Shown in pieces: positions 24,235 to 45,472 of a DNA stretch of 64,000 nt. Made by a program: the position numbers and the translations under genes. The DNA is from Candidatus Latescibacterota bacterium (GTDB lineage Bacteria; Latescibacterota; UBA2968; GCA-2709665), in assembly GCA_965219995.1 (NCBI GenBank), contig CBDCOX010000002.1, positions 3,008,001 to 3,072,000 on the forward strand. The letters are read 5' to 3'. Below the pieces are notes generated by a model. It was not told where the DNA came from. It saw only the letters and a list, made by a program, of their open reading frames with translations, and did not search any database. The number at the start of each line of letters is the position of its first letter. Position 1 is the first letter of the stretch.

Positions 24235-25548
24235 ATGTCGATCATCACATTTCTGTTTCTCTTCGTAGTCGTCCTGATCGTAACGAGAACACGTGCGGCC
24301 GCCGCCGAAGTGTCCCTTTCGGCAGGCGCGGCCCGGACCGATATCACGCCCGACCCCGCGATGCCGAACTGGGTGGACGGCAGACCCTATGACGGCGTTC
24401 TGGATCCGTTGACGCTGCGCGGGCTCGTTCTTTCGGACGGGAAGACCGAGTTCGCCCTGATCTGCTGGGACCTCATCGACGTGACGGAGGAATGCGCCGC
24501 CAGCGTGCGCCGGGCCGTCCACGGCGCAACGGGCATCCCGGAAGCGCACGTCCTGATGGCCGCCTCGCACACCCACTCGTCGCCCCGGTCTCCATATGCC
24601 GCGTCCACGTTTCCCGGCCGCAAGAGCGAGCGTCTCCGGGGTATTCTGGACGATCCCGTATTCCGGGCATGGAGCGAACGCCTGCCGGGACAATGCGCCG
24701 ACGTCCTCAAACGGGCTCAGGGCCGCCGCCAGCCCGTCACTTTGAACATCGGACGCGCGAACGCCTCGGAATGGCTGTTCAACCGGCGCCCCCTCGATCC
24801 TGACGGCAACGTCGTTACCATGTTTCGTCCCAAAGATCCGCACACGTTGCCGGACGGCCTGCGATTCGGACCTCTGGACCCCACCCTGACCGTTCTCACC
24901 CTTCGGAACGCCGCCGGCGCGAACGTCGCCACCCTGTACAGCGTTCCCTGCCACCCCGTCTCCATCTATCCCCACCACCGCGGCGTGTCCGCGGACTGGC
25001 CCGGGCCGGCCAACGAGCGGGTCTCGGAAGTCCTGGGCGGCGAGACTTTCTTCCTGCAGGGCTGCGCGGGGGACATCGTCCCCGCAAGGCGAGGGGAAGA
25101 AGCGCGCGCGAAAATGGCCCGTTTCTTCGCGAAACGGACCATCGCGGCGGCCCGGAGTTCCCACTCCCTGCCGTCGTCGCCCCTGAGAATCGCAACCCGG
25201 GTCGCCGGCCTGCCGCTCGTATCCGACGCGCGAAAGCTGGCGGGCGCCGACGTCCGGCCGGTCGAACTCCAGGCGGTGGTGTGCGGACCCTTCGGCCTCG
25301 CCGTGATTCCCGGAGAACCCCTGAACGGGCTCGCGCGTGAGATTCAGGCTCGTTCACCCCTGCCCCACACGCTTGTCATCGGATATGCCAATGGCCGCGG
25401 GGTGAGTTACGTCGGCCTTCCCGGAGAAAAAGCCAGGGGCGGATACGAGGCAGGCGCCGGCCAGGGTACCGAAGAAGCCGGCGACTTCATCGTCCAGACG
25501 GCCGTTCGGCTTCTGCAGGAAACGGTTGACGGCACTTCAGAGGGTTAA
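24235..25548 (+). CDS. Exported ceramidase-like hydrolase (paralogue of the upstream gene)
   Basis: Hydrophobic N-terminus; AGAARTDITP, SHTHSSP, FNRR, PCHP, ADWPG, PGE, GGYE. Confidence 0.75.
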   Translation: MSIITFLFLFVVVLIVTRTRAAAAEVSLSAGAARTDITPDPAMPNWVDGRPYDGVLDPLTLRGLVLSDGKTEFALICWDLIDVTEECAASVRRAVHGATGIPEAHVLMAASHTHSSPRSPYAASTFPGRKSERLRGILDDPVFRAWSERLPGQCADVLKRAQGRRQPVTLNIGRANASEWLFNRRPLDPDGNVVTMFRPKDPHTLPDGLRFGPLDPTLTVLTLRNAAGANVATLYSVPCHPVSIYPHHRGVSADWPGPANERVSEVLGGETFFLQGCAGDIVPARRGEEARAKMARFFAKRTIAAARSSHSLPSSPLRIATRVAGLPLVSDARKLAGADVRPVELQAVVCGPFGLAVIPGEPLNGLAREIQARSPLPHTLVIGYANGRGVSYVGLPGEKARGGYEAGAGQGTEEAGDFIVQTAVRLLQETVDGTSEG

Positions 25549-26987: not shown

Positions 26988-28535
26988 TCAGGCCTCCTCT
27001 TCGCGGCGTGCGGTGTCGGGGAACAGGAGGGAACCGAGAACCATCAGGACCAGCGCCAGCACGGTCGCGCCGAGGCCGATGTGCGCGCCGGTGAACGCGT
27101 CCAGCCCCAGTGCCCTCTTGACGGGCGTCAGGCCGGCGACGGCGGCGGCGCCCGCGACAAGCGCGAGGTATGCGCCGGCGGTGCTGGCGCGTTTCCAGTA
27201 GATCCCCGTGAGGAGCAGGGCGAACGCGCCGGTGAAGTAGATCGCGCCGCTCACCAGCATATAGTCCCAGAGATCCTGCCCAAGCTCGTACCACAGCCCC
27301 CACACGAGCAGAAAAGCGCCGATGACAAAGATGAAGATCCGGGACAGCGTCAGTCGGGCGCGGGTGGAAAGGGTATCGCCGGTGGCGGGGGCGACCACGT
27401 CGTGGGTAAGGACCGACGACCAGCAAAGCAGATAGCTGTCGTGGGTGGACATGAAGGCCGCCAGCAGTCCCGCCCCGATGAGGCCGATAAGACCGGCGGG
27501 GAGGATCTGGCTGAGGAAGACGGGCATGGCCAGAAGGGTGAGGTCCGCATTCCCCGTGGGGCCGCCGCCCGGAGAGAAGAAAACCCCGCGGGTCACCTCG
27601 TCCTGGTAGAGATAGACAAAAGCGCAGATGCCCAGAAACTGGGGCACCATGAACCGTACCAGAAAACCGATGGAGGACCAGGCGTAGAGTTTCTTCACCA
27701 CGGACGCGCTCTCAGCGGCGCAGGCCCTCATCACGGCGGTCTGCCACACGGCGCAGGAGACGATCCCGGCGGTGAAGATCATCCAGACGACGTACGACGG
27801 ACCGAATCCTCCCCCCTCGTGAAGCGGATTGAACCCGGGCTCTCCGTGTATCGCCGCGACGGTATCGACGATTGCCGACCATCCGAGCCTGTCCACGGCG
27901 ATCCCGCAGGTGAGGATAACACCCACGGATAGCACGATAAACTGGACGTAATCGGTGATGACGACCGAAACCATGCCCCCGAGTATGGTATAGCACAGAA
28001 CCAGCAGGAGCATCACGGTCATGATCAGGGCGACGGACGTGGGATTCGTGATCCCGGTCAGGCCGGCGACGAAGATCGCGCCCGCCTTGAGGAACAGGCC
28101 CATGTTGAGGATGCCGGAAAGGGCGAGCAGCAGGCCGCCGAAGATACGGACGCCGCGGCTGAATCGTCTTTCGTAGAACTCGGGAATCGTCATCACGCCC
28201 AGCTCGCGCAGCGGGACCACGATAAATCCGGTGAGGCCGATGATCAGGGTAACGATGCCGGCGATCAGGCCGATGTGAAAGGCCGCAAACCCGCCGGTGA
28301 ATCCCTTCTGGGCGGAATACATGACGGTCACGAGCCCGAGTTCGCTGCCGATCATCGTGGCGACGGCCAGGTACGGTTTCAGCGAACGGCCGGCGACAAT
28401 ATAGTCGCTCATGTTGCGGATGTACCGGTTGGCATACAGGCCGATGGCGACGGTGCCGAGCATGTACAGGGCGACAATCGCCCAATCGACCGTGCCGAAA
28501 TTGGAACTGACGCCGGTCAGGAGATCGGATGACAT
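26988..28535 (-). CDS. Sodium:solute symporter family protein
   Basis: DYIVAGRSL, TIPEFYERRF, GGMVSVVITDYVQF, AAFMST; many TM segments. Confidence 0.9.
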   Translation of the reverse strand: MSSDLLTGVSSNFGTVDWAIVALYMLGTVAIGLYANRYIRNMSDYIVAGRSLKPYLAVATMIGSELGLVTVMYSAQKGFTGGFAAFHIGLIAGIVTLIIGLTGFIVVPLRELGVMTIPEFYERRFSRGVRIFGGLLLALSGILNMGLFLKAGAIFVAGLTGITNPTSVALIMTVMLLLVLCYTILGGMVSVVITDYVQFIVLSVGVILTCGIAVDRLGWSAIVDTVAAIHGEPGFNPLHEGGGFGPSYVVWMIFTAGIVSCAVWQTAVMRACAAESASVVKKLYAWSSIGFLVRFMVPQFLGICAFVYLYQDEVTRGVFFSPGGGPTGNADLTLLAMPVFLSQILPAGLIGLIGAGLLAAFMSTHDSYLLCWSSVLTHDVVAPATGDTLSTRARLTLSRIFIFVIGAFLLVWGLWYELGQDLWDYMLVSGAIYFTGAFALLLTGIYWKRASTAGAYLALVAGAAAVAGLTPVKRALGLDAFTGAHIGLGATVLALVLMVLGSLLFPDTARREEEA

Positions 28536-28593
28536 AAGCAATACTCAGGGGTAGCCGGAAGAGTACACCGCCCTGGGGCGCTCTTCTTACACC

Positions 28594-28845
28594 CAGGGTG
28601 GAGGATTCACGCAAACCCGCGGTTCTGTCGTATAACCGGTTGTATTTCCATAAGTTCAGCGAAGTATTATACGACAGCATTTAAAGAAATACGGGTTCTG
28701 ACTTGTCACGATGAAATTGCGTGGTTAGAAGGGATTCGGAGTCGTCGTCTTAGCGCGGTAGAGTGAGCATTTGTCCTGCCTTTGGTTCTTATCCTGTCTA
28801 TCCTGTCCATCCATGTGAGTTTGGGCCTTTGAATTAGAGAGGCTA
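28594..28845 (-). mobile_element. MITE-like repeat, family A (inverted copy)
   Basis: Reverse complement has ACATGGATGGACAGGATAGACAGGATAAGAACC, GGACAAATGCTCA, ATAATACTTCGCTGAA, CGTGAATCCTCCACC. Confidence 0.8.
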
Positions 28846-29460
28846 AGGCCAGGTGGGGCGTTCCATTGAGAAAGAACCGTCGACGCAAACGTAGTCCAGG
28901 TACCCGAGACGCCCAACGGGTCTCAATGCCACGGTGTCGACGTGGCCATCCTTTATTGCCCAATCGGCTATGTGAATGCCGATCACCTGACCGAAAACGA
29001 CCGTGTTCGGATCGTCCTGAACGTCGGTCGGCAGGTCCACGGTCCGGGTGTGAATACACTCCAGATGGACCGGGCTTTCGGCCACGCGGGGAGGGTTTAC
29101 GAGTTCTGACGGCGCCCGCGTGACGCCCGCGTACTCGAATTCGTCGACGTGTCGGGGCGCGGGCACGGCAGTGGCGTTCATCTGGGTGCGAAGCGCCCAG
29201 GTGGCGAGGTTGACCACGAATTCGCCGGTTTCCCGGGCGTTCCTTATCGAATCCTTCAGCCCGCCATGGGAGTGCGTGGTCGTTGCGGCGAACATGACCT
29301 GTGGGGGCCTGTAGGCCACCGCGTTGAAAAACGAGTACGGGGCCAGGTTGACCGTACCCCGCGCGTCGATGGATGAAATCCATCCGATCGGTCGCGGCAC
29401 GACGATGGCGTTGAAGGGATCACGGGGCAGGCCGTGGTCTTCAGACGTCCTGTAAAACAT
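28843..29460 (-). CDS. Flavin reductase-like FMN-binding protein
   Basis: PRPIGWISS, NLAPYSFFN, KDSIRNARETGEFVVN, RLGY. Confidence 0.88.
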   Translation of the reverse strand: MFYRTSEDHGLPRDPFNAIVVPRPIGWISSIDARGTVNLAPYSFFNAVAYRPPQVMFAATTTHSHGGLKDSIRNARETGEFVVNLATWALRTQMNATAVPAPRHVDEFEYAGVTRAPSELVNPPRVAESPVHLECIHTRTVDLPTDVQDDPNTVVFGQVIGIHIADWAIKDGHVDTVALRPVGRLGYLDYVCVDGSFSMERPTWP

Positions 29461-29473
29461 GCCCGGGATCTCC

Positions 29474-30475
29474 CTATTTCCATCTGAAAACGACGCCCAA
29501 TGCATCTCCGGGATCGTCGGCGAGCATGGTGTAGACTTCCTGGCACTGTTCCGGATCCGCGACGTGGGTGATCAGGTCTTCCACGGGCAACCTGCCCTCT
29601 CCCATCAGGCGCATCACCAGCGCCCGGTCCCGTTCCTTCGCCCACCGGTAGTAGATGTGATCGGCCTCCGGCGTTTTGGGCTGGTGGGCGCCCAGGATGC
29701 TGACTTCCCTCAGGTGTACGTCGGCCAGAAAATCCATGTCGACGGTACCGCGCGGGGAACCCAGTGCGACCACACGCCCTGCCGTGCACGCAAGCCGGAC
29801 GGCGGTGGGATAGACCGCGGGTTTTCCAGTCGCTTCGATCACGACGTTGGCGCCGTCTTCCACGCAGTGTCCGCCGACCGCGTCCCTGACGTCGTCCACG
29901 TCTCCGGGATTGATGCAGAACCCGGTACCGCGGCGACGGGCAACGTCCAGGCGGAAGCCGTCCAGGTCGACGGCGATGACCGGGAGGGCGCCGGAGAGCC
30001 GCGCGAGGGTCGCGGCGAGCTGACCGACAATTCCCAGGCCGATGACGACCACCACCTCGCCCAGTTCGATGCGCGCCACGCGGATTCCGTGGATGGCGAT
30101 TGCGCCCATGACCATAAAGGCGGCGGCCTGGGACGACACGGCGTCCGGGACTTTCCGATGGAACGACCTGGCGCCCGAGATGACGGAATGGCTCGCGTGG
30201 TTCCCCTGTCCGGCAACGCGGTCGCCGGGGCGGATGCCCTCAACCTCCCTGCCGACTTCCAGGACCGTGCCGACGTTGCAATAGCCGGTGCCGCGGGGGA
30301 AACGGACCGGGTTACCGGGTTCGCCTCCATGCGTCCAGCCGTGGATCTCCGTTCCGACGCTGACGGCGGTGTACTCGTTTTCTATGAGGATACCGTCATC
30401 CGGTACAGGCCCCGTTTCGAAGGATGCGACTTCCATCCGGCGAATGCCGGGAATGAGAAGACGTCTGGCTTTCAT
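29474..30475 (-). CDS. MDR-family dehydrogenase
   Basis: VSVGTE, GYCNVGTVLEVG, GLGIVG, IEATG. Confidence 0.85.
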   Translation of the reverse strand: MKARRLLIPGIRRMEVASFETGPVPDDGILIENEYTAVSVGTEIHGWTHGGEPGNPVRFPRGTGYCNVGTVLEVGREVEGIRPGDRVAGQGNHASHSVISGARSFHRKVPDAVSSQAAAFMVMGAIAIHGIRVARIELGEVVVVIGLGIVGQLAATLARLSGALPVIAVDLDGFRLDVARRRGTGFCINPGDVDDVRDAVGGHCVEDGANVVIEATGKPAVYPTAVRLACTAGRVVALGSPRGTVDMDFLADVHLREVSILGAHQPKTPEADHIYYRWAKERDRALVMRLMGEGRLPVEDLITHVADPEQCQEVYTMLADDPGDALGVVFRWK

Positions 30476-30561
30476 CTGCAAGTCCTTTCCTGTTGCTCGA
30501 CCGCGGACGCGACGGGAACCCGTGACGGGCGCAGGACCCCGCCGGGCGGCGGGCGCGGTTT

Positions 30562-31599
30562 CTACGCCTGCCCGCGGTCCAGGGTCTCGCGGAAGAGTCG
30601 GAGGAAGTTGCCGCCCCAGACCTTGCGGATTTCGTTTTCCGAGAGGCCGCGGGCGAGCATGGCGCGGGTGAGCCGCACGAGCTTTGAGACGTCTCCGAAA
30701 ACCGGAGTGGCCGAACCCATGCCGTCGTAATCGGAGCCGATGGCAACGTGGTCGATGCCCACCAGGTCCGCCACGTAACAGATATGGTCGACCATTCGAT
30801 CCGCGGAAGGGTTTTCCGGATCGATAAAGCCCGGGAGAAACGCAATGCCCATCACCCCGCCGGCCCCGGCCAGCGCCCTGAGTTGATCGTCGGTCAGGCA
30901 GCGCCAGTGGTTGCAGACGGAGAAGGCCGCGGTGTGGGTCATCGTTGCCGGGAGCGAAGACCGCTCCAGAACCTGGTAGAAAGCCCTGTCGTTAATATGG
31001 GCCAGGTCCGTGATGATGCCCAGCCGGTTGCTCTCCTCAAGTACGGCTCTGCCGAAGTCCGTCAACCCGACGGCGCTTCCGCGTTCCCGATCGCGGTCTT
31101 CAGGCGAGCACGGCCCGAACGGACTTCTGCTGCCCTGCAGGAGGGACGGGTCGTCACCGCCTTCGCCGTGGGTGATTCCGATGCAGCGAACCCCCAGGCG
31201 GTAATAAAGACGCAATGCGTCCATCTCTCCTTCCAGCCAGCGTCCGGCGCCTTCGATCGTGAGCAGGATGCCGATCTTGCCGGTTTCTTTCGCCCGTTCA
31301 ACATCCCGTGACGAGAACACCAGCATCAGGTCGTCGGGATAAAGCTCCACCGACGCAAGGGTTTGCTCCAGGGTAACCCGGACGTTTGCCGTGGGGCCGT
31401 TGCCGATCACGAAGAAGCCTGCGTCGAACCCGCCCTCCTTCATCCGGGGAATGTCCATATGGTAGGCATCGTCCGGTTTTTTCAGGTCCATCGGACGTTC
31501 GCCCCGGTGCACGCGCTCCACGGGCGTGTCGTTGTGGCCGTCGACGATCAGGCACCTGTCGTGGACCGCCTGCGCTTCTTCAAGGGTGATTTCCGGCAT
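30562..31599 (-). CDS. Membrane dipeptidase (peptidase M19)
   Basis: DGHND, MDIPRM..GG, IEG, GLTDFG, DLAH, GSDYDG, GGNFLR. Confidence 0.9.
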   Translation of the reverse strand: MPEITLEEAQAVHDRCLIVDGHNDTPVERVHRGERPMDLKKPDDAYHMDIPRMKEGGFDAGFFVIGNGPTANVRVTLEQTLASVELYPDDLMLVFSSRDVERAKETGKIGILLTIEGAGRWLEGEMDALRLYYRLGVRCIGITHGEGGDDPSLLQGSRSPFGPCSPEDRDRERGSAVGLTDFGRAVLEESNRLGIITDLAHINDRAFYQVLERSSLPATMTHTAAFSVCNHWRCLTDDQLRALAGAGGVMGIAFLPGFIDPENPSADRMVDHICYVADLVGIDHVAIGSDYDGMGSATPVFGDVSKLVRLTRAMLARGLSENEIRKVWGGNFLRLFRETLDRGQA

Positions 31600-31669: not shown

Positions 31670-32992
31670 CTACGGCGGATCGACGGGCACTTTCTGACGC
31701 TTGCGGACCAGCGGATCGTACGTGAACCCGTCAGAGCGTTTTTCGAACTCCGCGCGCGCCTTCTTCAGGAGATCCGGATTTCCGCAGAGATCGATCGCGC
31801 TTCCGGCAAAAACCTTGGCGGTCTGCCGGACCGCGCGCTCGGCGAAAGGCAGGGCGGCCTGCGCGGCCATGTCCCGGTGGTGTCCGGGCGTACCCTTTGC
31901 GTAACAGACCATCTCGAAGCGACCCAGGGGCGCCAGCCATGAAACATTGTCTTCGTCGGTCGACCCCCTGCCCTGAGAGCCGCTGCCCTTGCCGATCTTC
32001 GTATTGAATCCCTTCTTGTATCCCAGGGCTTCGGCGCGCTCCCGGTCGGCTTCCGTGGGTTTGGGCGGCCCGAAGCGTTTCAGGTTTTCACGTACGATCT
32101 CACACATCGCCCTGTTGGGCAGACGGGGGTATACGGCGGTGATGCGAGACCATTTCATCTTCGTGTCCGTGGCTCTGGCGGCGCCCCGTGCGCAGGCGGT
32201 GAGACGCTCGCGCACGCCGTCGACCTGCTTGCGGTCTTTCCCCCGAACGAAATACCAGATTTTCGCATAGGCCGGCACCACGTTGGGTGCGTCTCCTCCA
32301 TCGCGGATCACGGAATGGATCCTGACGTTTTCGGGGACATGCTCCCGGAGATAGTTGGCGGCAATATCCGTGAGCATCACGCCGTCCAGCGCGCTGCGGC
32401 CCCGGTGGGCCGCAGCGCCGTGGGCGGTACGGCCGAAGAATTCGTAGACGACGGAGTCCAGCGACGACCCGCCGAAATTATTGACGCCGGAAGAGTTTCC
32501 CGGATGCCAGGCGAGGCAGGCGTCCAGGTCCCGGAACGCGCCGTCGCGGGCCATATAGACTTTGCCGGCCAGCGTCTCTTCCGCCGGGCAGCCGTAGTAG
32601 ACGATTTTCCCGGATGTGCCGGTTGATTCGAGAATCTTCGCAGCGGCGACCGCACCCACGGCCGGGGCAACGCCCAGGAGGTTGTGGCCTCAGCCGTGAC
32701 CCCATTGCCCCTCCTCGGAACCGCAGTTGGGCAGCGCGTCGTATTCGCCGAGCATTCCGACCGCCGGCATGCCGGCGCCACTGGTCGCGCGAAATGCAGT
32801 GGGGATATTCTTGAACGGGAACTCGACGTCGAAGCCGCGCGAGGCCAGGTAGTCCGCGATAGCCCGGGAGGATTTGACCTCCCGGAAGGGGCGTTCCGCC
32901 CAGGCATGCACCCGGCCGGAGAGGTCCCTGGCCCGCTTCGACTCGGCAGCGACGGCGCGATTGACGAGACGCTTTTTTTCTTTCTGTTTCAT
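31670..32992 (-). CDS. AbgB-like M20D amidohydrolase with in-frame TGA at the metal-ligand Cys (candidate selenoprotein)
   Basis: ORFs 32690-33160 and 31670-32659 share a frame; joined they read EYDALP...GHG*GHNLLG...GCPAEE...WHP...STD; AGGAG RBS before ATG 32992; 440 aa. Confidence 0.85.
32654..32689 (-). promoter_or_regulatory. Candidate bacterial SECIS hairpin
   Basis: After UGA: GGCCACAACCUCCU-GGGC-GUU-GCCC-CGGCCGUGGGU; apical loop begins GU after an 18-nt spacer. Confidence 0.5.
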
Positions 32993-33041
32993 GATTTTCT
33001 CCTGTCCATCCATGTCTATTCCGATTGCTGAGTGAAATGGG

Positions 33042-34130
33042 CTAGACCCTCGCGACGGCATCGGCCACCGCATCGCCCGCCTCACGCGTCCCGGCGGCGC
33101 CTCCCAGGTCTGCGGGGTGATTCTTCGGACTGTCCAGCGTTCGATCCACGGCGCGGTCAATCGTCTCCGAGGCCGCGGCGGCTTCGGGATCGTTGTGGCG
33201 CGCGCCCAGCCAGGACAGCATCATCCCCGAGGACAGGATCTGGGCCATGGGGTTGGCAATTCCCTCCCCCGCGATATCGGGGGCGGTTCCGTGGGACGGC
33301 TGGAAGACGCCGTAGCGGTCACCCACGTCCGCGGACGGCGCCATCCCCATCCCGCCGATGGTGGCGGCGGCCAGGTCGGAGATGATATCCCCGAACATAT
33401 TTTCCGCGACGACGACGTCGTACCAGCCGGGGTTGCGCAGCTGGTACACGGTGAATGCATCCACGTAGGCGTAGTCCCGTTCGACGTCGGGATAGGTCGC
33501 CGCAATCTCGTCGTAGATCTGACGGAAGAACGCCATGCTCTTCAGAATGTTGGCCTTGTCGACCGAGGTGACGCGAGTCTTGCCGTCGGCGGGCGCCCCC
33601 TTCCGCTGCCTTGCGATTTCAAAGGCGTACCGGACGATCCGCTCGGTGCCGGCGCGGGTGATCACCATGTTGTCCACGGCGAGGCTGTCACCCACGCGTA
33701 CCCCCGCGCCGCGGGAGGCATAGAGGCCCTCGGTATTCTCACGCAGGATGACGTAATCGAGCGGCGGATCTCCATCGAGAAGCGGCGGCACGCCGCGATA
33801 CTTCTTGATGGGCCGGATCCCGGCGTAAAGGTCCAGTTCGAAGCGGAGTGTCAGTTGGGGTGCGATTTCCGTGCCGTCGGGAAAACGGACGTCCGGATCG
33901 CCGGCCGAACCGAAGAGCACGGCATCGGCCTGTTTGCAGGCTTCGAGCGTGGATTCCGGGAGGTCCTCGCCGGTTTCAGCGTAACACCCGGCGCCCACCG
34001 GATGTTCGGAAAACGTGAATCGAAGATCGGGATGCGGCTCCTCCAGGGCGAGGAGCACTTTGAGCGCTTCCGCGACGACTTCCGGGCCGACGCCGTCTCC
34101 GGGGAGCACAGCGATGTTGTACGTTGGCAT
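33042..34130 (-). CDS. Isocitrate/isopropylmalate/tartrate dehydrogenase family protein
   Basis: LPGDGVGPEV, RENTEGLY, VDKANIL, ENMFGDIISD, HGTAPDIAG..IANP. Confidence 0.9.
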   Translation of the reverse strand: MPTYNIAVLPGDGVGPEVVAEALKVLLALEEPHPDLRFTFSEHPVGAGCYAETGEDLPESTLEACKQADAVLFGSAGDPDVRFPDGTEIAPQLTLRFELDLYAGIRPIKKYRGVPPLLDGDPPLDYVILRENTEGLYASRGAGVRVGDSLAVDNMVITRAGTERIVRYAFEIARQRKGAPADGKTRVTSVDKANILKSMAFFRQIYDEIAATYPDVERDYAYVDAFTVYQLRNPGWYDVVVAENMFGDIISDLAAATIGGMGMAPSADVGDRYGVFQPSHGTAPDIAGEGIANPMAQILSSGMMLSWLGARHNDPEAAAASETIDRAVDRTLDSPKNHPADLGGAAGTREAGDAVADAVARV

Positions 34131-34155: not shown

Positions 34156-35319
34156 CTACGAACCGCGGCGTGGGCGCTGGCGATCGCGGATCCCGATACG
34201 GAATCCGCCCGCGGACTTCACGCCTCGTTCCAGTACGTCCGATTCGACGTCGAATCCGGCGCCGGGCGTTTCAGGGACGACCAGCCTGCCGTTTCGCATC
34301 CGCCATCCGTCCAGGACGATGCCCGGCATGTCCGCGGGGGCCGCTTCCAGGAGGCTGAAGTTGGGAATGGAAGCGGCGAAATGGGCATGGGCGTACCGTT
34401 CGATGACGCTGCCCCAGCAGTGGGGAGCGCACTTCGCGCCCCATGGTTTGATCCGGTCCGCGGTGGCTTTCCACCAGGTCAGCCCCTTGTAGCGGAAGTC
34501 GTGCTGCACGATATCGATCCATCCTTTTTCCACCATGTCGAAGAAGCCGGGCGGAGGCGGCCCGGATTCACCGTCGGCCACGAGCGTGTCGTAGCCTCCC
34601 CGGTCGATGGCTTCCTTAAAGGCCTCATTGAACGCCCGGTCTTCGGGAAACGGCTCTTCGAACCAGTAGATCCCCGCGTCCCGGCATCGTTCGAGAATGT
34701 CCAATGCGATATTGAGCGTGGCGCCGTTGTTGGCGTCAACGAGAATTTTCGCGTCCGGTCCCGCGGCTTCGCGGACCGCGTGGATCACCAGCACGTCCCT
34801 GTCCGTACCTTCGCGAACCGGCATCCAGCGGGCGCCGCGCCCGATTTTGATCTTGAAATTGCAGTAGCCGGAATCGCGGCCGGTCCGGACTTCCTCGCGG
34901 AAGATTCGCCGCGCCTCGTCGTCGGTGGTGCCCAGATCGTCAATGTAGATGGAACCGTCGTAGAGTTCCACCTCACGGGCGCCGCGCGCGCCAAGAAGTC
35001 GAAAAAGGGGGATCCCTTCACATCTGGCGGCCAGGTCCCACAGGGGCAGGTCGATTGGAGCGCCATCGGCAGTCGACCCGCCGGGAAGTTCGAAGAGCGC
35101 CGAGGGGCGCATTCCGAGCAACGCTTCGGCGCGTTCCCTGCCAATGGCAGACCAGCCGATGCCCACGGCGCCGCCCGTGGTGCAGATACGAACGACCGGA
35201 TCGGTGACGGCGGGACCATGGACGCCGATGCGGGCGTTGGATCCCACGACGCGCGGGCGCTTTCCGTGCAGTACGACTCTTTCGATCCTGGCGATCGGGT
35301 CGGAAAAGGCACTTGACAT
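34156..35319 (-). CDS. Mandelate racemase/muconate lactonizing enzyme family protein
   Basis: DLPLWDL, FKIKIG, VDAN, WFEEP, ADGE, PH, PGAG. Confidence 0.85.
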   Translation of the reverse strand: MSSAFSDPIARIERVVLHGKRPRVVGSNARIGVHGPAVTDPVVRICTTGGAVGIGWSAIGRERAEALLGMRPSALFELPGGSTADGAPIDLPLWDLAARCEGIPLFRLLGARGAREVELYDGSIYIDDLGTTDDEARRIFREEVRTGRDSGYCNFKIKIGRGARWMPVREGTDRDVLVIHAVREAAGPDAKILVDANNGATLNIALDILERCRDAGIYWFEEPFPEDRAFNEAFKEAIDRGGYDTLVADGESGPPPPGFFDMVEKGWIDIVQHDFRYKGLTWWKATADRIKPWGAKCAPHCWGSVIERYAHAHFAASIPNFSLLEAAPADMPGIVLDGWRMRNGRLVVPETPGAGFDVESDVLERGVKSAGGFRIGIRDRQRPRRGS

Positions 35320-39478: not shown

Positions 39479-41554
39479 TCAAACGGAGCCCAGGCTCTTG
39501 AGGATCTTCGCGACAATGGCATCCGTGTCGCGGATTCCGACTCCGGACAGCCGCTCCAGGATCATCCCCTGCGGGTCCACCAGAAAATAGGCCGGAATCC
39601 CGCGCACGCTATAGGCGCTGGTCGTCTTGGAACGCCATGCCCCCGCACGCACGTGCACCCCTTCGATCCCGTGTTTTTCGATGGCTTTGCGCCATGCGGC
39701 GTCGCTCGAATCCAGTGAGAGGTTGAGGAAAACCACCGGCTGACCGGCGGTTTCTTTCTTTATCTTTCTGAGATCGGGCAAGTTGCTTATGCACGGCCCG
39801 CACCAGCTTGCCCAGAAGTCCAGCAGCACGACCTTGCCCCTGAACTGGCTCAGCGATACGGGCCTGCCGTCCAGATCCTCCAGCGTGAAATCCGGGGCCG
39901 GACGTCCCGGCTGGAGGGCCATCGCCTTGTCCAGCGCCGCCTGGACCGGCGCGTTGTATTCGGGATAGGGATTGGTCGTCCGGTAGTCCCGCCACTTGCG
40001 ACGGACCAGTTCAAAGCTGTTGCCGCCGTACTCGAAACTTCGGATCAATTCCCCTGCCAGGAACCAGTAAAGCACGCGCCCATTCAATTTCTTCTCGGCC
40101 AGCTCAATCCTGTGTGGAAGCCTGGGCATGGACCGTTTCCTGATTGCATAGATCGAATCCAGCTTCGCCTGCACCGCCTGCGCCAGACCCAGACTCGTGA
40201 GGTCCAGCTTCCGGGACAGGCTGAGCGGCTGACGATTTTCGTACAGGGAGTCCAGATGCGCGACAAACTCCGGCGACGGGTCCAATTCCGACAGATCCAC
40301 CATTTCCGACAACCTTTGCGTCTTGTGGATCGAATTCAATTGCCCTTCCATGTCCTTGCCTTCTTCTACGGGCAGCCGGAGAACCAGCGAACCGCCTGTG
40401 GTATCGATTTCCGGTTTTTTCAGCTTGCTTGAAGTCGTGATCCTGTACGATCTGCCACTCCTTTCGTAGAAGGAGTCGAGACGGGCGTGAGCTGCCTGGG
40501 GGACGCCCAATTTCGGCAGATCGATGATGTCGGACAGTGTGGATTTGCGCCTGTTGTCATACAGCGAGTCAAGTCTGCCCGCGACAGGTTTCGGCAGATC
40601 CGACGCACCCAGACGGATCATTTTTGACAGTTTCGGATGCCACCCGTACCGCGCGTAGAGTGAGTCGAGACCTGCGACGGTCTCCTCCCGAAGATCCAGA
40701 CTCGACAGATCGTATTGATCGCTGAGTCTGTTGGACGGCGGCATCCTCATCATTTCCAGGTCCAGCGTCCGGATGAGGTAGGTACTATACGTACCCATAC
40801 CAATTGCCTTTTCGTCCACCAGCGGGACCCGTTTCAGGAAGTCGTGAAATTCAGGCGGGATATCCGGGTTCTCGCGGCCGGTGGCGCGCCGGTAATTTTC
40901 CGGGTATGAAATCTTCAGAAAGGCATACGTGTAGTTGAAAAAGCGCGTCGCGTACTCGACGAATTCCGGCGAGAACGCGTATCTCGTTCGCCGCATCTCC
41001 AGGAATTCAAGCTGGTCCGTGCGCCACCCGTCCGCCAGGCGGGCGAAGGCTTCCGCGTCCATTTTCCTGGAGTCCCTGACTATCTTCTGGAAGTCCTGGA
41101 ACCGGGGGTACCATTCGACAACAAACCGGCTGTTGTCCGCATTGTTTCCGCTGAACCGGAACGAGGTGTGGAGACGGCCGGGGTGGATTTTGATATGCAG
41201 GCTGTCGCCGGGTTCGACAAAGAAAACCAGCGGACCGGGCTTGAAGGCATACGACACGGCCTGCCGCACCCATTTCCATGGGACGCTTCTGGTTTTGAAA
41301 CTTCCCCTGACGAGGGTCCCGCGGACGACGGGAATCTCGAGCGCGAACCGGTTCCGGCCGTCCAGAGCCACGCGCTGCTCGGATTGTCGACCCAGTGCCC
41401 AGGGCGGGTCGTAACGGAACGTGATCTCACGCGACGTGGGGTTGCGTACTTCGCCGGTGATGATCGCGACCGATGGCGGGCCGGTTTCTGACGCCGAGGC
41501 GAAAGTCGACATCGTCATGAAGGCCGCGAGGGTACTGACGGAAAGGCTATTCAT
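39479..41554 (-). CDS. Exported TlpA/ResA-type thiol-disulfide oxidoreductase with internal repeats
   Basis: Signal peptide; APDFTL, LDFWASWCGPC, GIP..FLVD at C-terminus. Confidence 0.85.
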   Translation of the reverse strand: MNSLSVSTLAAFMTMSTFASASETGPPSVAIITGEVRNPTSREITFRYDPPWALGRQSEQRVALDGRNRFALEIPVVRGTLVRGSFKTRSVPWKWVRQAVSYAFKPGPLVFFVEPGDSLHIKIHPGRLHTSFRFSGNNADNSRFVVEWYPRFQDFQKIVRDSRKMDAEAFARLADGWRTDQLEFLEMRRTRYAFSPEFVEYATRFFNYTYAFLKISYPENYRRATGRENPDIPPEFHDFLKRVPLVDEKAIGMGTYSTYLIRTLDLEMMRMPPSNRLSDQYDLSSLDLREETVAGLDSLYARYGWHPKLSKMIRLGASDLPKPVAGRLDSLYDNRRKSTLSDIIDLPKLGVPQAAHARLDSFYERSGRSYRITTSSKLKKPEIDTTGGSLVLRLPVEEGKDMEGQLNSIHKTQRLSEMVDLSELDPSPEFVAHLDSLYENRQPLSLSRKLDLTSLGLAQAVQAKLDSIYAIRKRSMPRLPHRIELAEKKLNGRVLYWFLAGELIRSFEYGGNSFELVRRKWRDYRTTNPYPEYNAPVQAALDKAMALQPGRPAPDFTLEDLDGRPVSLSQFRGKVVLLDFWASWCGPCISNLPDLRKIKKETAGQPVVFLNLSLDSSDAAWRKAIEKHGIEGVHVRAGAWRSKTTSAYSVRGIPAYFLVDPQGMILERLSGVGIRDTDAIVAKILKSLGSV

Positions 41555-43642: not shown

Positions 43643-45472
43643 CTACTGCGAACGATACTCGGATATTTTCTCCTTCACGAGATCTACCAGTCGTTCGCCG
43701 CGCAGGTTTTTCGCGATGATCTCCCCATCGGGGGCAATGAGAAACGTGGTTGGCCACGCCACGATACCGTAAGCTTTTTCAATCTTCTCGGTGGAAATCC
43801 CGTTGGCATACGGGATTTCATGAATCCTTATGAAATCTTCCAGGTCTCTTGGATCATTGTGAGCCAGACCAATGATCGTGAGTCCCCCGTCCGGAAAAGA
43901 CTCGTGAAGGTTCTTGAGATTCGGAAGTTCGTTTATGCAGGGACCGCACCATGTCGCCCAGAAGTCAAGAAAGACAAACTTCCCTCGATAATCGGAGAGC
44001 CGCAGCGAGTCTCTACCTGCGGCCGGCGCCACGAATTCGGGTGCGGCACTTTCTTCTCGCAGGTTCAGTGCATTCGACATCCGTTCAACGCCGCTGCCCT
44101 GGACCGTCCTGGAATTCGGATATTTGCGAATCAGATAATTCAGAACGTTGCGCGCGGCAACTGCGTTTCCGTAATCCCGGAAATGTTGTGCCGCACGCCA
44201 GAGCACTTTTTCCCCTTCACGTGAATCGGGCGGCAGGTTTCGTTCCTTCGCCACCAGAATGCCGGTAAAGAAAAAAGGCGGAACGTTGTATTTCTCGCCG
44301 AGATCCGGTGCGTGTTGTAGCCCTTCATCGAGGCGCAGATAGGTGATTGTATCGTACGTCCTAAAGAAAATGGAATTCGGATCCATTTTCTTTGCCAACT
44401 GCGCCATCTGGCTAAAGTAGCTCTCGTAGACCGTACTCTGATAGTGCTCCCTTCTCTTTTCTTCGAACTCCTGTTTATTGTGTCTCAGACTTTGCAAACC
44501 CTTCATCGCTTCAGCGTGGGGATGAAATCTTTTCAGGAATTCAAATCTAATTTTTACGAAGAGTTGTTCGAAATAAGCGGGGTATCGATTCGCAATTTCC
44601 CGGAATCTTTCTTCGCGCTCGATAAAGGCGGAAACGTCGCTCTCTGAGGATTGGGTGGTGTCGCGTTTGCTGAACAGAACCTGCATGTTTTCTTTTTGGA
44701 AAGTGTAGATTTCATCCACAAGACTGGCGAAGGCAGCCTGGTGTTCCCCGCCTGAGAATTCGGCTCTTGAGTCCCTCTTCGGCCGGACATACTGAGACGG
44801 ATCGAAGATAACCTCTCCACCTTCGTAGATTGAGTTGAATGTAACGAAACTACGAGGGTTGGGAATTGCACGGGAATGACTCAAGTCATAAACGTCGCTA
44901 CCACCGTTACTTACAATAAACCGATATCCACCGCCGACTTTAACGGGACTATCGCCTGGCAAAACCCACACGCTGTCTTTCCTCACCATTTCAATCGCGC
45001 CCCACGGCCGCCATCGACAAAAGTCACCCCACAGTTTGACCCATTCTATACCGGGCTTCAGACCGAAAGGTTCAAGATAAGCCGTCACATTTGCGTGAGT
45101 GCCGGCGTCAGGAACAAGCACTGACGTTTTTAACGTCTCATAACCGAAGGCGGAGATAACAAGCGTATACAGCCCGGGTTCCACGTCGAAAGTGAACTCC
45201 TTAGTGTCTAGCGACCGGGAGTTTTTCGGCCTGACGACAAATGGTCTCCACGTCAATTTCAATTCTTCTATCCCCACATAAATTGAATCCGGAATCGCCT
45301 TTCCATTTAACTTGATCGTCCCTGAAATAGTCGATCTGGAGGGTCTTTGCTCGTCGGGTCGTCCCGAGATTTCCAGATCCGGCTGTTGGACAACAGACAG
45401 CATTGAATCTGTTGACGCCGATACGTCGCCGGGAAGGAACAGGAAAAGTGCAGTCGCGATTCTCAAATTCAT
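43643..45472 (-). CDS. Exported multidomain TlpA-type thioredoxin protein
   Basis: LDFWATWCGPC, AWPTTFLI..G.I..KNLRG; N-terminal beta-rich region (PGLYTLVISAFGYE). Confidence 0.8.
   Translation of the reverse strand: MNLRIATALFLFLPGDVSASTDSMLSVVQQPDLEISGRPDEQRPSRSTISGTIKLNGKAIPDSIYVGIEELKLTWRPFVVRPKNSRSLDTKEFTFDVEPGLYTLVISAFGYETLKTSVLVPDAGTHANVTAYLEPFGLKPGIEWVKLWGDFCRWRPWGAIEMVRKDSVWVLPGDSPVKVGGGYRFIVSNGGSDVYDLSHSRAIPNPRSFVTFNSIYEGGEVIFDPSQYVRPKRDSRAEFSGGEHQAAFASLVDEIYTFQKENMQVLFSKRDTTQSSESDVSAFIEREERFREIANRYPAYFEQLFVKIRFEFLKRFHPHAEAMKGLQSLRHNKQEFEEKRREHYQSTVYESYFSQMAQLAKKMDPNSIFFRTYDTITYLRLDEGLQHAPDLGEKYNVPPFFFTGILVAKERNLPPDSREGEKVLWRAAQHFRDYGNAVAARNVLNYLIRKYPNSRTVQGSGVERMSNALNLREESAAPEFVAPAAGRDSLRLSDYRGKFVFLDFWATWCGPCINELPNLKNLHESFPDGGLTIIGLAHNDPRDLEDFIRIHEIPYANGISTEKIEKAYGIVAWPTTFLIAPDGEIIAKNLRGERLVDLVKEKISEYRSQ

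Follow-up and report, generated by a model that had tools for sequence, protein, structure and literature searches.

The 64,000-nucleotide stretch of a Candidatus Latescibacterota genome analysed here (the window) carries on its minus strand a gene with a TGA in the frame at codon 101. We consider this gene to be a genuine selenoprotein gene, encoding a 440-residue enzyme of peptidase subfamily M20D in which codon 101, UGA, would be recoded as selenocysteine (Sec), and put the probability of this reading at roughly 0.9. The novelty lies in the host family and in the site, an M20D hydrolase with Sec at the presumed metal-bridging cysteine; recoding itself would follow the standard bacterial mechanism. 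Recoding of this UGA had been proposed in an earlier reading of the same letters (the original prediction), and the proposal is now supported by conservation of the column, by alternation of Sec and Cys at it, by selection on the gene, by the presence of the decoding machinery and by an invariant RNA hairpin. To our knowledge almost all selenoproteins are oxidoreductases, and where Sec binds a metal, as in formate dehydrogenase and [NiFeSe] hydrogenase, the chemistry is redox.

When the whole gene is read through it holds a single in-frame TGA, within GHG-TGA-GHN, and the product of 440 residues contains EYDALPNCGSEEGQWGHG-U-GHNLLG, with the EYDALP, PAEE, WHP and STD motifs all found in the translation. 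The layout given in the original prediction (ATG, AGGAG, one TGA, 440 residues, family motifs) was correct in every detail when the sequence was re-read. Translation table 11 divides the gene into an upstream frame of 100 codons and an open reading frame (ORF, 31670-32659) of 329 codons with a GTG start, this GTG being codon 112, in frame and 11 codons past the TGA. The gene is also misannotated in public data, where the protein collection contains the Sec forms solely in truncated versions, 320-336 residues long and in one case named 'peptidase dimerization domain-containing protein', and where the predicted starts of the Sec-form proteins differ between orthologues. A family annotation model would mend dozens of genomes.

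The conservation of TGA at this one column is far beyond chance. Among 41 genomes (the genome itself and 40 relatives) an orthologue at E <= 1e-40 was found in 37, each time with exactly one TGA. A wider scan of 168 genomes of the phylum, mostly titled Candidatus Latescibacterota, returned matches at E <= 1e-50 in 75 genomes (78 match rows). Fifty-five of these rows, at 69-100% identity, have one TGA each, and the remaining 23 are stop-free, one at 67% identity and 22 at 35-45%. The column is identical in 30/30 fetched loci, which read WGHG*GHNLLG with the asterisk at the TGA, and 14 further loci have TGA at this column in six cases and Cys (TGC/TGT) in eight, the eight being the 67%-identical orthologue from genome G154 and seven distant homologues. 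The TGA is hence not specific to one strain, being found in 55/55 stop-bearing close orthologues of the phylum and in loci of the two wider scans described next.

Both states, TGA and a Cys codon, occur at exactly the Sec column, the alternation for which the original prediction had suggested looking. An all-prokaryote scan with one genome per species gave 80 loci, of which 26 have TGA, 48 have TGC/TGT and six have no match to the motif pattern; a scan of metagenome contigs, again 80 loci, gave 15 with TGA, 61 with TGC/TGT and four without the motif. Cys occupies the column in 99/102 full-length proteins among the best 120 database matches, with identities reaching 77%. The TGA forms belong to metagenome-assembled genomes (MAGs) titled mostly Candidatus Latescibacterota, some being labelled Gemmatimonadota or 'bacterium', and two of the otherwise-labelled MAGs (PAQK01 and PBOD01) fall within the same phylum genome set. 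Cys forms come from Kiritimatiellae, Planctomycetota, Lentisphaerae, Armatimonadota, Aminicenantes, Clostridia and Alphaproteobacteria.

These data bear directly on the simplest alternative, that the gene is dead or the TGA an artefact, whether by random nonsense mutation or by sequencing error. A single substitution does turn TGC or TGT into TGA, and it is also true that gene callers split the gene and that databases hold only its truncated products. However, the same TGA is seen in 55 species of the phylum, in 26 genome loci and in 15 metagenome loci, and DNA contigs from two independent other studies cross it, with no difference at 32690-32692 among the matches listed; a systematic error shared across independent studies and sequencing technologies is implausible. 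Selection speaks the same way. The start codon lies 98-101 codons 5' of the TGA in 37/37 sequences and the N-terminal ~100 codons are conserved. The ratio of nonsynonymous to synonymous substitution rates (dN/dS) is 0.08-0.34 over codons 1-100 and 0.055-0.19 over codons 102-440 in the same nine pairs, two further pairs being saturated at synonymous sites. Purifying selection acts on both halves of the gene, the outcome of a dN/dS comparison that was suggested with the original prediction. Because dN/dS is well under 1 in either half and the start and N-terminus are conserved, a pseudogene or strain-specific nonsense mutation is excluded; we regard this alternative as refuted by conservation and its probability as practically nil. 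A genome-wide reassignment of TGA was likewise considered and rejected, since TGA terminates 1503/2654 open frames of at least 400 codons in the genome and is its commonest ordinary stop. Three Pfam-supported genes in the window also end in TGA.

The genome has the machinery to decode UGA as Sec, with selA, selB, selD and tRNA-Sec all present at profile scores above their cut-offs (558.9, 366.8, 359.9 and 73.4 bits respectively). Outside the window selA, selB and tRNA-Sec directly adjoin one another on the minus strand at C2:1802582-1806100, forming a compact Sec-decoding cluster, and the selD of this genome is of the Sec type and carries an in-frame TGA of its own. Across the phylum selA is above cut-off in 131/168 genomes and it was found in 54/55 of those with the TGA form. 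It was not found in G154 (86% complete), which has the only close Cys-form orthologue, nor in its congener G155 (90% complete), and in their genus, g29, the Sec trait seems to have been lost along with a conversion of Sec to Cys. A Sec codon predicts just this pattern, with selA accompanying the TGA form and no selA beside the Cys form of G154. Six further genes outside the window are each interrupted by one in-frame TGA and belong to known selenoprotein families (Table 1); five of them have a hairpin with loop GU at +21 to +23, and in the sixth, the CMD/AhpD-like gene, the hairpin loop lies farther out, at about +28 to +33 (numbering with the U of UGA as +1).

A conserved RNA block follows the UGA of the M20D gene. 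Of 435 eight-codon windows compared in 36 Sec-form genes, that of codons 107-114 has the lowest mean codon entropy (0.18, against a median of 1.12), and four-fold degenerate sites are nearly invariant in these codons and freely variable in the flanking ones. In an alignment of 44 distinct 60-nt sequences, drawn from 77 retrieved Sec-form copies, positions +17 to +21, +25 to +29, +31 to +34, +37 to +38 and +40 to +44 do not vary. The constraint tracks the TGA rather than the protein, because the Cys-form orthologue at locus L170, with the identical peptide LLGVAPAVGAV, uses other synonymous codons and lacks the nucleotide block.

From the Sec-form alignment RNAalifold predicts two adjacent hairpins, here called A and B, which have standard pairs in 484/484 cells of the 44 sequences and whose variable columns all lie in loops or preserve pairing. 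The changes in hairpin B are C/U35 with G40, G30 with C/U45 and one A30-U45 double change, and the loop of hairpin A occurs as GUU, GUA and, in one sequence, ACA. Hairpin B explains why codons 111-114 lack synonymous variation, and it fits the 3' conservation better than a long lower stem does. The original prediction had placed a GGGC/GCCC stem after the UGA, with a loop starting GU behind an 18-nt spacer, and this core is indeed the 32665-32675 hairpin, its stem invariant in 44/44 TGA forms. Of the two extensions proposed for it, CC/GG exists here and is compatible, the pair 16-30 forming in 44/44 sequences and the pair 15-31 in 34/44. The outer CCAC/GUGG is a property of this sequence and pairs in only 64% of cells across the 44, and the long lower stem was rejected since 29 and 23 of these sequences, respectively, fail to form its two middle pairs.

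In the fdhF gene of E. coli the selenocysteine insertion sequence (SECIS) is a hairpin in the ORF directly 3' of the UGA, with G/U in an apical loop some 20-25 nt after it. The element here resembles the fdhF type in being a hairpin in the ORF directly 3' of the UGA, a layout that selD and the FdhA-like gene also show behind their TGA. It differs in its 4-bp stem and 3-nt loop, in the second conserved hairpin and in one variant without G/U in loop A, and the recoding signal may be an unusual tandem two-hairpin SECIS. When the M20D gene is counted with the six TGA-interrupted genes of known selenoprotein families, six of the seven have a hairpin of at least 4 bp with loop GU and its G at +21 to +23.

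With these elements in place two other accounts of the UGA can be weighed. One is a split gene, in which translation would stop at the UGA and restart downstream (e.g., at GTG codon 112) to give a non-covalent assembly of 100 and ~329 residues, the RNA block serving reinitiation. The in-frame GTG that opens the 31670-32659 ORF, the fact that database proteins begin in this region and the conserved RNA, which could in principle be a coupling signal, would all suit such an arrangement. Yet the stop falls exactly on the Cys column, so that GHxCGH would be cut in two and lose its Cys, and the restart codon is not fixed, predicted starts varying among orthologues. Furthermore, the TGA form co-occurs with selA whereas the lineage without selA has Cys, and the position of the hairpin loop agrees with that in the other selenoprotein genes of the genome. 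We give a split gene a very slim chance indeed. The other account is that the UGA is read through without selenium, by a near-cognate Cys- or Trp-tRNA or by Cys carried on tRNA-Sec, and acts as a translational throttle. Low-level UGA read-through does occur in bacteria, and Cys works at this site in all homologues, but a throttle needs no conserved hairpin placed like the other SECIS elements of the genome and would not track selA, nor would UGA stay fixed over 55 species with Cys codons one mutation away. The chance of selenium-free read-through is, in our judgement, slim.

By sequence the protein is an M20D amidohydrolase. It matches TIGR01891 over residues 24-373 with 184.3 bits (cut-off 153.75) and the M20_dimer family PF07687 with 30.5 (cut-off 21); PF01546 was below the reporting threshold for the Sec protein and is precomputed for many homologues. 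Its nearest solved relatives by sequence are HmrA (3RAM, E 5.6e-44) and human PM20D2 (7YH4/8ZEI, E 2.4e-32), and the GHACGHN of both aligns to the Sec site. An AlphaFold2 model with a predicted local distance difference test (pLDDT) of 75.7 and a predicted template modelling score (pTM) of 0.79 has the two-domain M20 fold with dimerisation domain, and its fold matches are led by 3RAM and 7YH4, followed by 6SLF (CsAga), 4EWT, 1YSJ, 3IO1 and 1XMB, with YxeP and ILL2 among them. Outside the window the genome also has a second, distant M20D paralogue at C2:631549-632559, with 30% identity over residues 7-314 and no internal stop.

HmrA of S. aureus is the best match by both sequence and fold (TMq 0.69) and shares the two-domain M20 architecture with dimerisation domain, but it has Cys where the gene here has UGA/Sec, is 26-27% identical and lies in another gene neighbourhood; the clade of the Sec gene also has a ~7-residue insertion before the motif. 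PM20D2, a beta-alanyl-lysine / Xaa-Arg dipeptidase, comes second (TMq 0.64-0.66) and has the GHACGHN motif, but it is eukaryotic, ~24% identical and has Cys, not Sec. A published passage describes HmrA as a Met-X carboxydipeptidase/aminoacylase. The original prediction had called the protein AbgB-like, and several homologues bear the JGI label 'aminobenzoyl-glutamate utilization protein B'. The label proved loose. The Klebsiella AbgB homologue 3IO1 belongs to the same broad M20D/TIGR01891 group but comes no higher than 23rd among the fold matches, with 18% identity, the NCBIfam profile search of the protein matched no AbgB-specific family model, and there are no abgA/abgT-type neighbours at the locus. 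A true AbgB identity was thus rejected, neither orthology to AbgB nor an abgA/abgT context having been found.

The proposed role of residue 101 comes from the third relative, CsAga, a Corynebacterium N-alpha-acylglutamine aminoacylase of subfamily M20D that shares the fold, is 17% identical and has Cys. A review passage places HmrA and CsAga in M20D and has the two zinc ions of CsAga bridged by a cysteine. In our alignment GHG(U/C)GH, PAEE (E138, E139), WHP (H163) and H371/H372 are invariant, their ligand roles being presumed, in part from the CsAga passage. We also tried to place residue 101 at the metal site from the AlphaFold2 model and dropped this, the active-site loops being of low confidence. 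We take the bridging cysteine to be the Cys of the CGH motif throughout M20D.

On this basis a mechanism can be proposed. Codon 101 UGA would be recoded as Sec by the SelA/SelB/SelD/tRNA-Sec system, directed by a SECIS within the coding sequence directly after the UGA, namely the invariant GGGC/GCCC hairpin, whose loop spans +22 to +24; the adjacent 7-bp hairpin (+29 to +46) is probably part of the same element. Sec would replace the Cys of the GHxCGH motif. In a solved M20D relative a Cys, presumably this one, bridges the two catalytic metals, so that the Sec enzyme would have a selenolate among the metal ligands of an active site that is hydrolytic and not redox. The enzyme would act as a metal-dependent amidohydrolase or dipeptidase, and a dipeptide or an N-acyl amino acid is its likely substrate in view of its relatives and of the neighbouring M19 and enolase-superfamily genes. 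That Sec is inserted and that it ligates the metals are points that we infer, and SelB may bind either hairpin.

A number of observations weigh against a recoded UGA or against parts of this mechanism. Insertion of Sec at the UGA is a prediction from sequence, and the metal-ligand role of the Cys is presumed, with the review passage on CsAga as its published source. Residues 84-104 of the AlphaFold2 model, the active-site loops, have pLDDT below 50. One genome with the TGA form, G032 (91% complete, 430 contigs), had no selA that we could find. Parts of the gene are represented in contigs of two metatranscriptome libraries. One such contig covers 32553-32717 but extends only 25 nt past the TGA; in any case we do not count these contigs as proof of transcription, since DNA carry-over is possible and they give no expression level. 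As for the RNA element, covariation in the stems is not significant (one compensatory change, 100/500 shuffles scoring as high), so in this near-invariant block the structure is drawn mainly from invariance. The single-sequence fold of the 66 nt after the UGA is ordinary (z = 0.49, 135/200 shuffles folding at least as well), and as the fold energy is no better than that of shuffles, the support for the hairpins is conservation and not stability. G30 pairs equally well with position 16 or 45, so that more than one fold is possible. In the sequence shared by L057 and L085, ACA (Thr) replaces GUU (Val) in loop A, so that the expected G/U is gone while both stems are kept; this argues that the GU of loop A is dispensable or that hairpin B makes the SelB contact. 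Finally, the hairpin pattern shared with the other selenoprotein genes follows 3421/143096 (2.4%) of all TGA triplets in the genome, a background figure that is indicative only, the pattern having been defined after the sequences had been seen.

All Sec forms appear to share one origin. In a maximum-likelihood tree of 136 proteins (36 Sec and 100 Cys forms), built with the Sec/Cys residue masked, every Sec form falls inside one well-supported clade of 71 rows, where Sec forms are interleaved with Cys forms, and the Sec/Cys label needs four changes on the tree, at least three of them forced by supported branches. As the RNA block is common to every Sec form, the simplest reading would be that Sec was gained once, in the Latescibacterota, and that Cys returned several times, including in a lineage that lost selA.

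New bacterial selenoprotein families turn up regularly, and this one is apparently undescribed. A 2026 review brings together 119 families and subfamilies of prokaryotic selenoproteins, and no M20, peptidase or amidohydrolase family appears in its Table 1. The words amidohydrolase, peptidase, M20 and hydrolase go unmentioned in the main texts of the deep-Sep, BSepDB, GOS and 2016 ISME papers, of the Haft 2022 preprint and of a 2022 review. Full-text literature searches found no published Sec-containing M20 enzyme or amidohydrolase, although one may be listed in a supplement or in the BSepDB database, and NCBIfam release 20 has no selenoprotein-specific model matching the protein. The 2026 inventory does contain predicted non-redox selenoproteins, namely a UshA-like family, one related to the C-terminal part of CTP synthase, and methylated-DNA-protein-cysteine methyltransferase. 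Sec outside the classical thiol oxidoreductases has in this sense been predicted before, but none of the three is an M20 peptidase or amidohydrolase, and in none does Sec occupy the site that bridges a dinuclear metal centre in a peptidase fold.

The comparison with formate dehydrogenase alpha and the [NiFeSe] hydrogenases is instructive here. They use the same UGA/SECIS/SelB recoding and, according to review text, their Sec directly coordinates the catalytic Mo/W or Ni. They are, however, redox enzymes, whereas the M20D protein is a member of a family of hydrolases, whose metal serves as a Lewis acid. We lean, by odds a little better than even, towards the stronger claim that no earlier hydrolase of metallopeptidase fold has a bridging selenolate at a dinuclear centre and that this would be the first, one that arose once in Latescibacterota and reverted several times. 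If this is true, Sec would tune the choice of metal, Lewis acidity or resistance to oxidative inactivation instead of doing redox chemistry, the known uses of selenium would be widened, and the question 'why selenium instead of sulfur' would become testable in a Lewis-acid site. The natural matched Sec/Cys pairs, up to 77% identical, allow one to ask what selenium adds at a non-redox metal site. For Latescibacterota of sponge and marine metagenomes the family also serves to mark the Sec trait.

Table 1. Positions of the M20D selenoprotein gene, its candidate recoding signal, neighbouring genes and other TGA-interrupted genes of the genome (window positions, or contig C2 where so marked)
Feature	Position	Strand	Details and basis
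Predicted Sec-containing M20D amidohydrolase coding sequence, complete	31670..32992	-	440 codons; sequence and translation, TIGR01891, PF07687
ATG start of this gene	32990-32992	-	sequence
TAG, true stop of this gene	31670-31672	-	sequence
AGGAG, Shine-Dalgarno-like, 6 bases 5' of ATG	32999..33003	-	sequence
In-frame TGA, codon 101, predicted Sec, Cys column of GHxCGH	32690..32692	-	sequence and orthologue columns
SECIS candidate hairpin A, GGGC/GCCC stem, triloop GUU +22 to +24	32665..32675 (+18 to +28)	-	4 pairs invariant 44/44
SECIS candidate hairpin B, 7-bp stem, loop (A/G)GG(U/C)	32647..32664 (+29 to +46)	-	RNAalifold
Codons 107-114, least synonymous variation in gene	32651..32674 (+19 to +42)	-	codon entropy
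Isocitrate/isopropylmalate dehydrogenase family gene, upstream	33042..34130	-	PF00180 E 1.6e-91; 22/26 Sec-form loci
Enolase-superfamily (MR_MLE) gene, further upstream	34156..35319	-	PF13378 E 1.3e-37; 16/26 Sec-form loci, one partly
M19 membrane dipeptidase family gene, downstream	30562..31599	-	PF01244 E 1.4e-79; 17/26 Sec-form loci
Zn-type alcohol dehydrogenase family gene, further downstream	29474..30481	-	PF00107 E 1.2e-17; 20/26 Sec-form loci and one partial
selD, outside window	C2:2652925-2653848		one in-frame TGA; known selenoprotein family
AhpC/TSA peroxiredoxin-like gene, outside window	C2:3765042-3765533		one in-frame TGA; known selenoprotein family
AhpC/TSA peroxiredoxin-like gene, outside window	C2:439894-440163		one in-frame TGA; known selenoprotein family
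AhpC/TSA peroxiredoxin-like gene, outside window	C2:5157666-5157893		one in-frame TGA; known selenoprotein family
FdhA-like gene, outside window	C2:899386-900126		one in-frame TGA; known selenoprotein family
CMD/AhpD-like gene, outside window	C2:78589-78744		one in-frame TGA; known selenoprotein family

The genes on either side of the M20D gene recur at many of the Sec-form loci (Table 1), and none of the four was found beside 20 Cys-form loci from other phyla, where flanks of at most 3 kb were covered and some contigs were short. Because the neighbours are kept only within the Sec clade, gene context is a weak guide to the substrate. Three more frames of the window, of 225-437 residues (28706-29383 and 27712-28680 on the minus strand, 24235-25548 on the plus strand), have no Pfam match at E <= 1e-5, and some of them may be spurious, the genome being 61% G+C.

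A few observations on the locus and the assembly can be added. A contig from a related strain (run X7) has a 9-base insertion directly behind 32999, beside the Shine-Dalgarno sequence of the Sec gene. Two large frames of the window, 39479-41554 and ~43715-44047 on the minus strand (691 and ~627 residues), are without internal stop, and they have large N-terminal parts without an assigned family and C-terminal AhpC/TSA, redoxin or thioredoxin-like domains. A second, small contig that may be a plasmid, a phage or an unplaced piece is part of the assembly (C1, 9612 bases).

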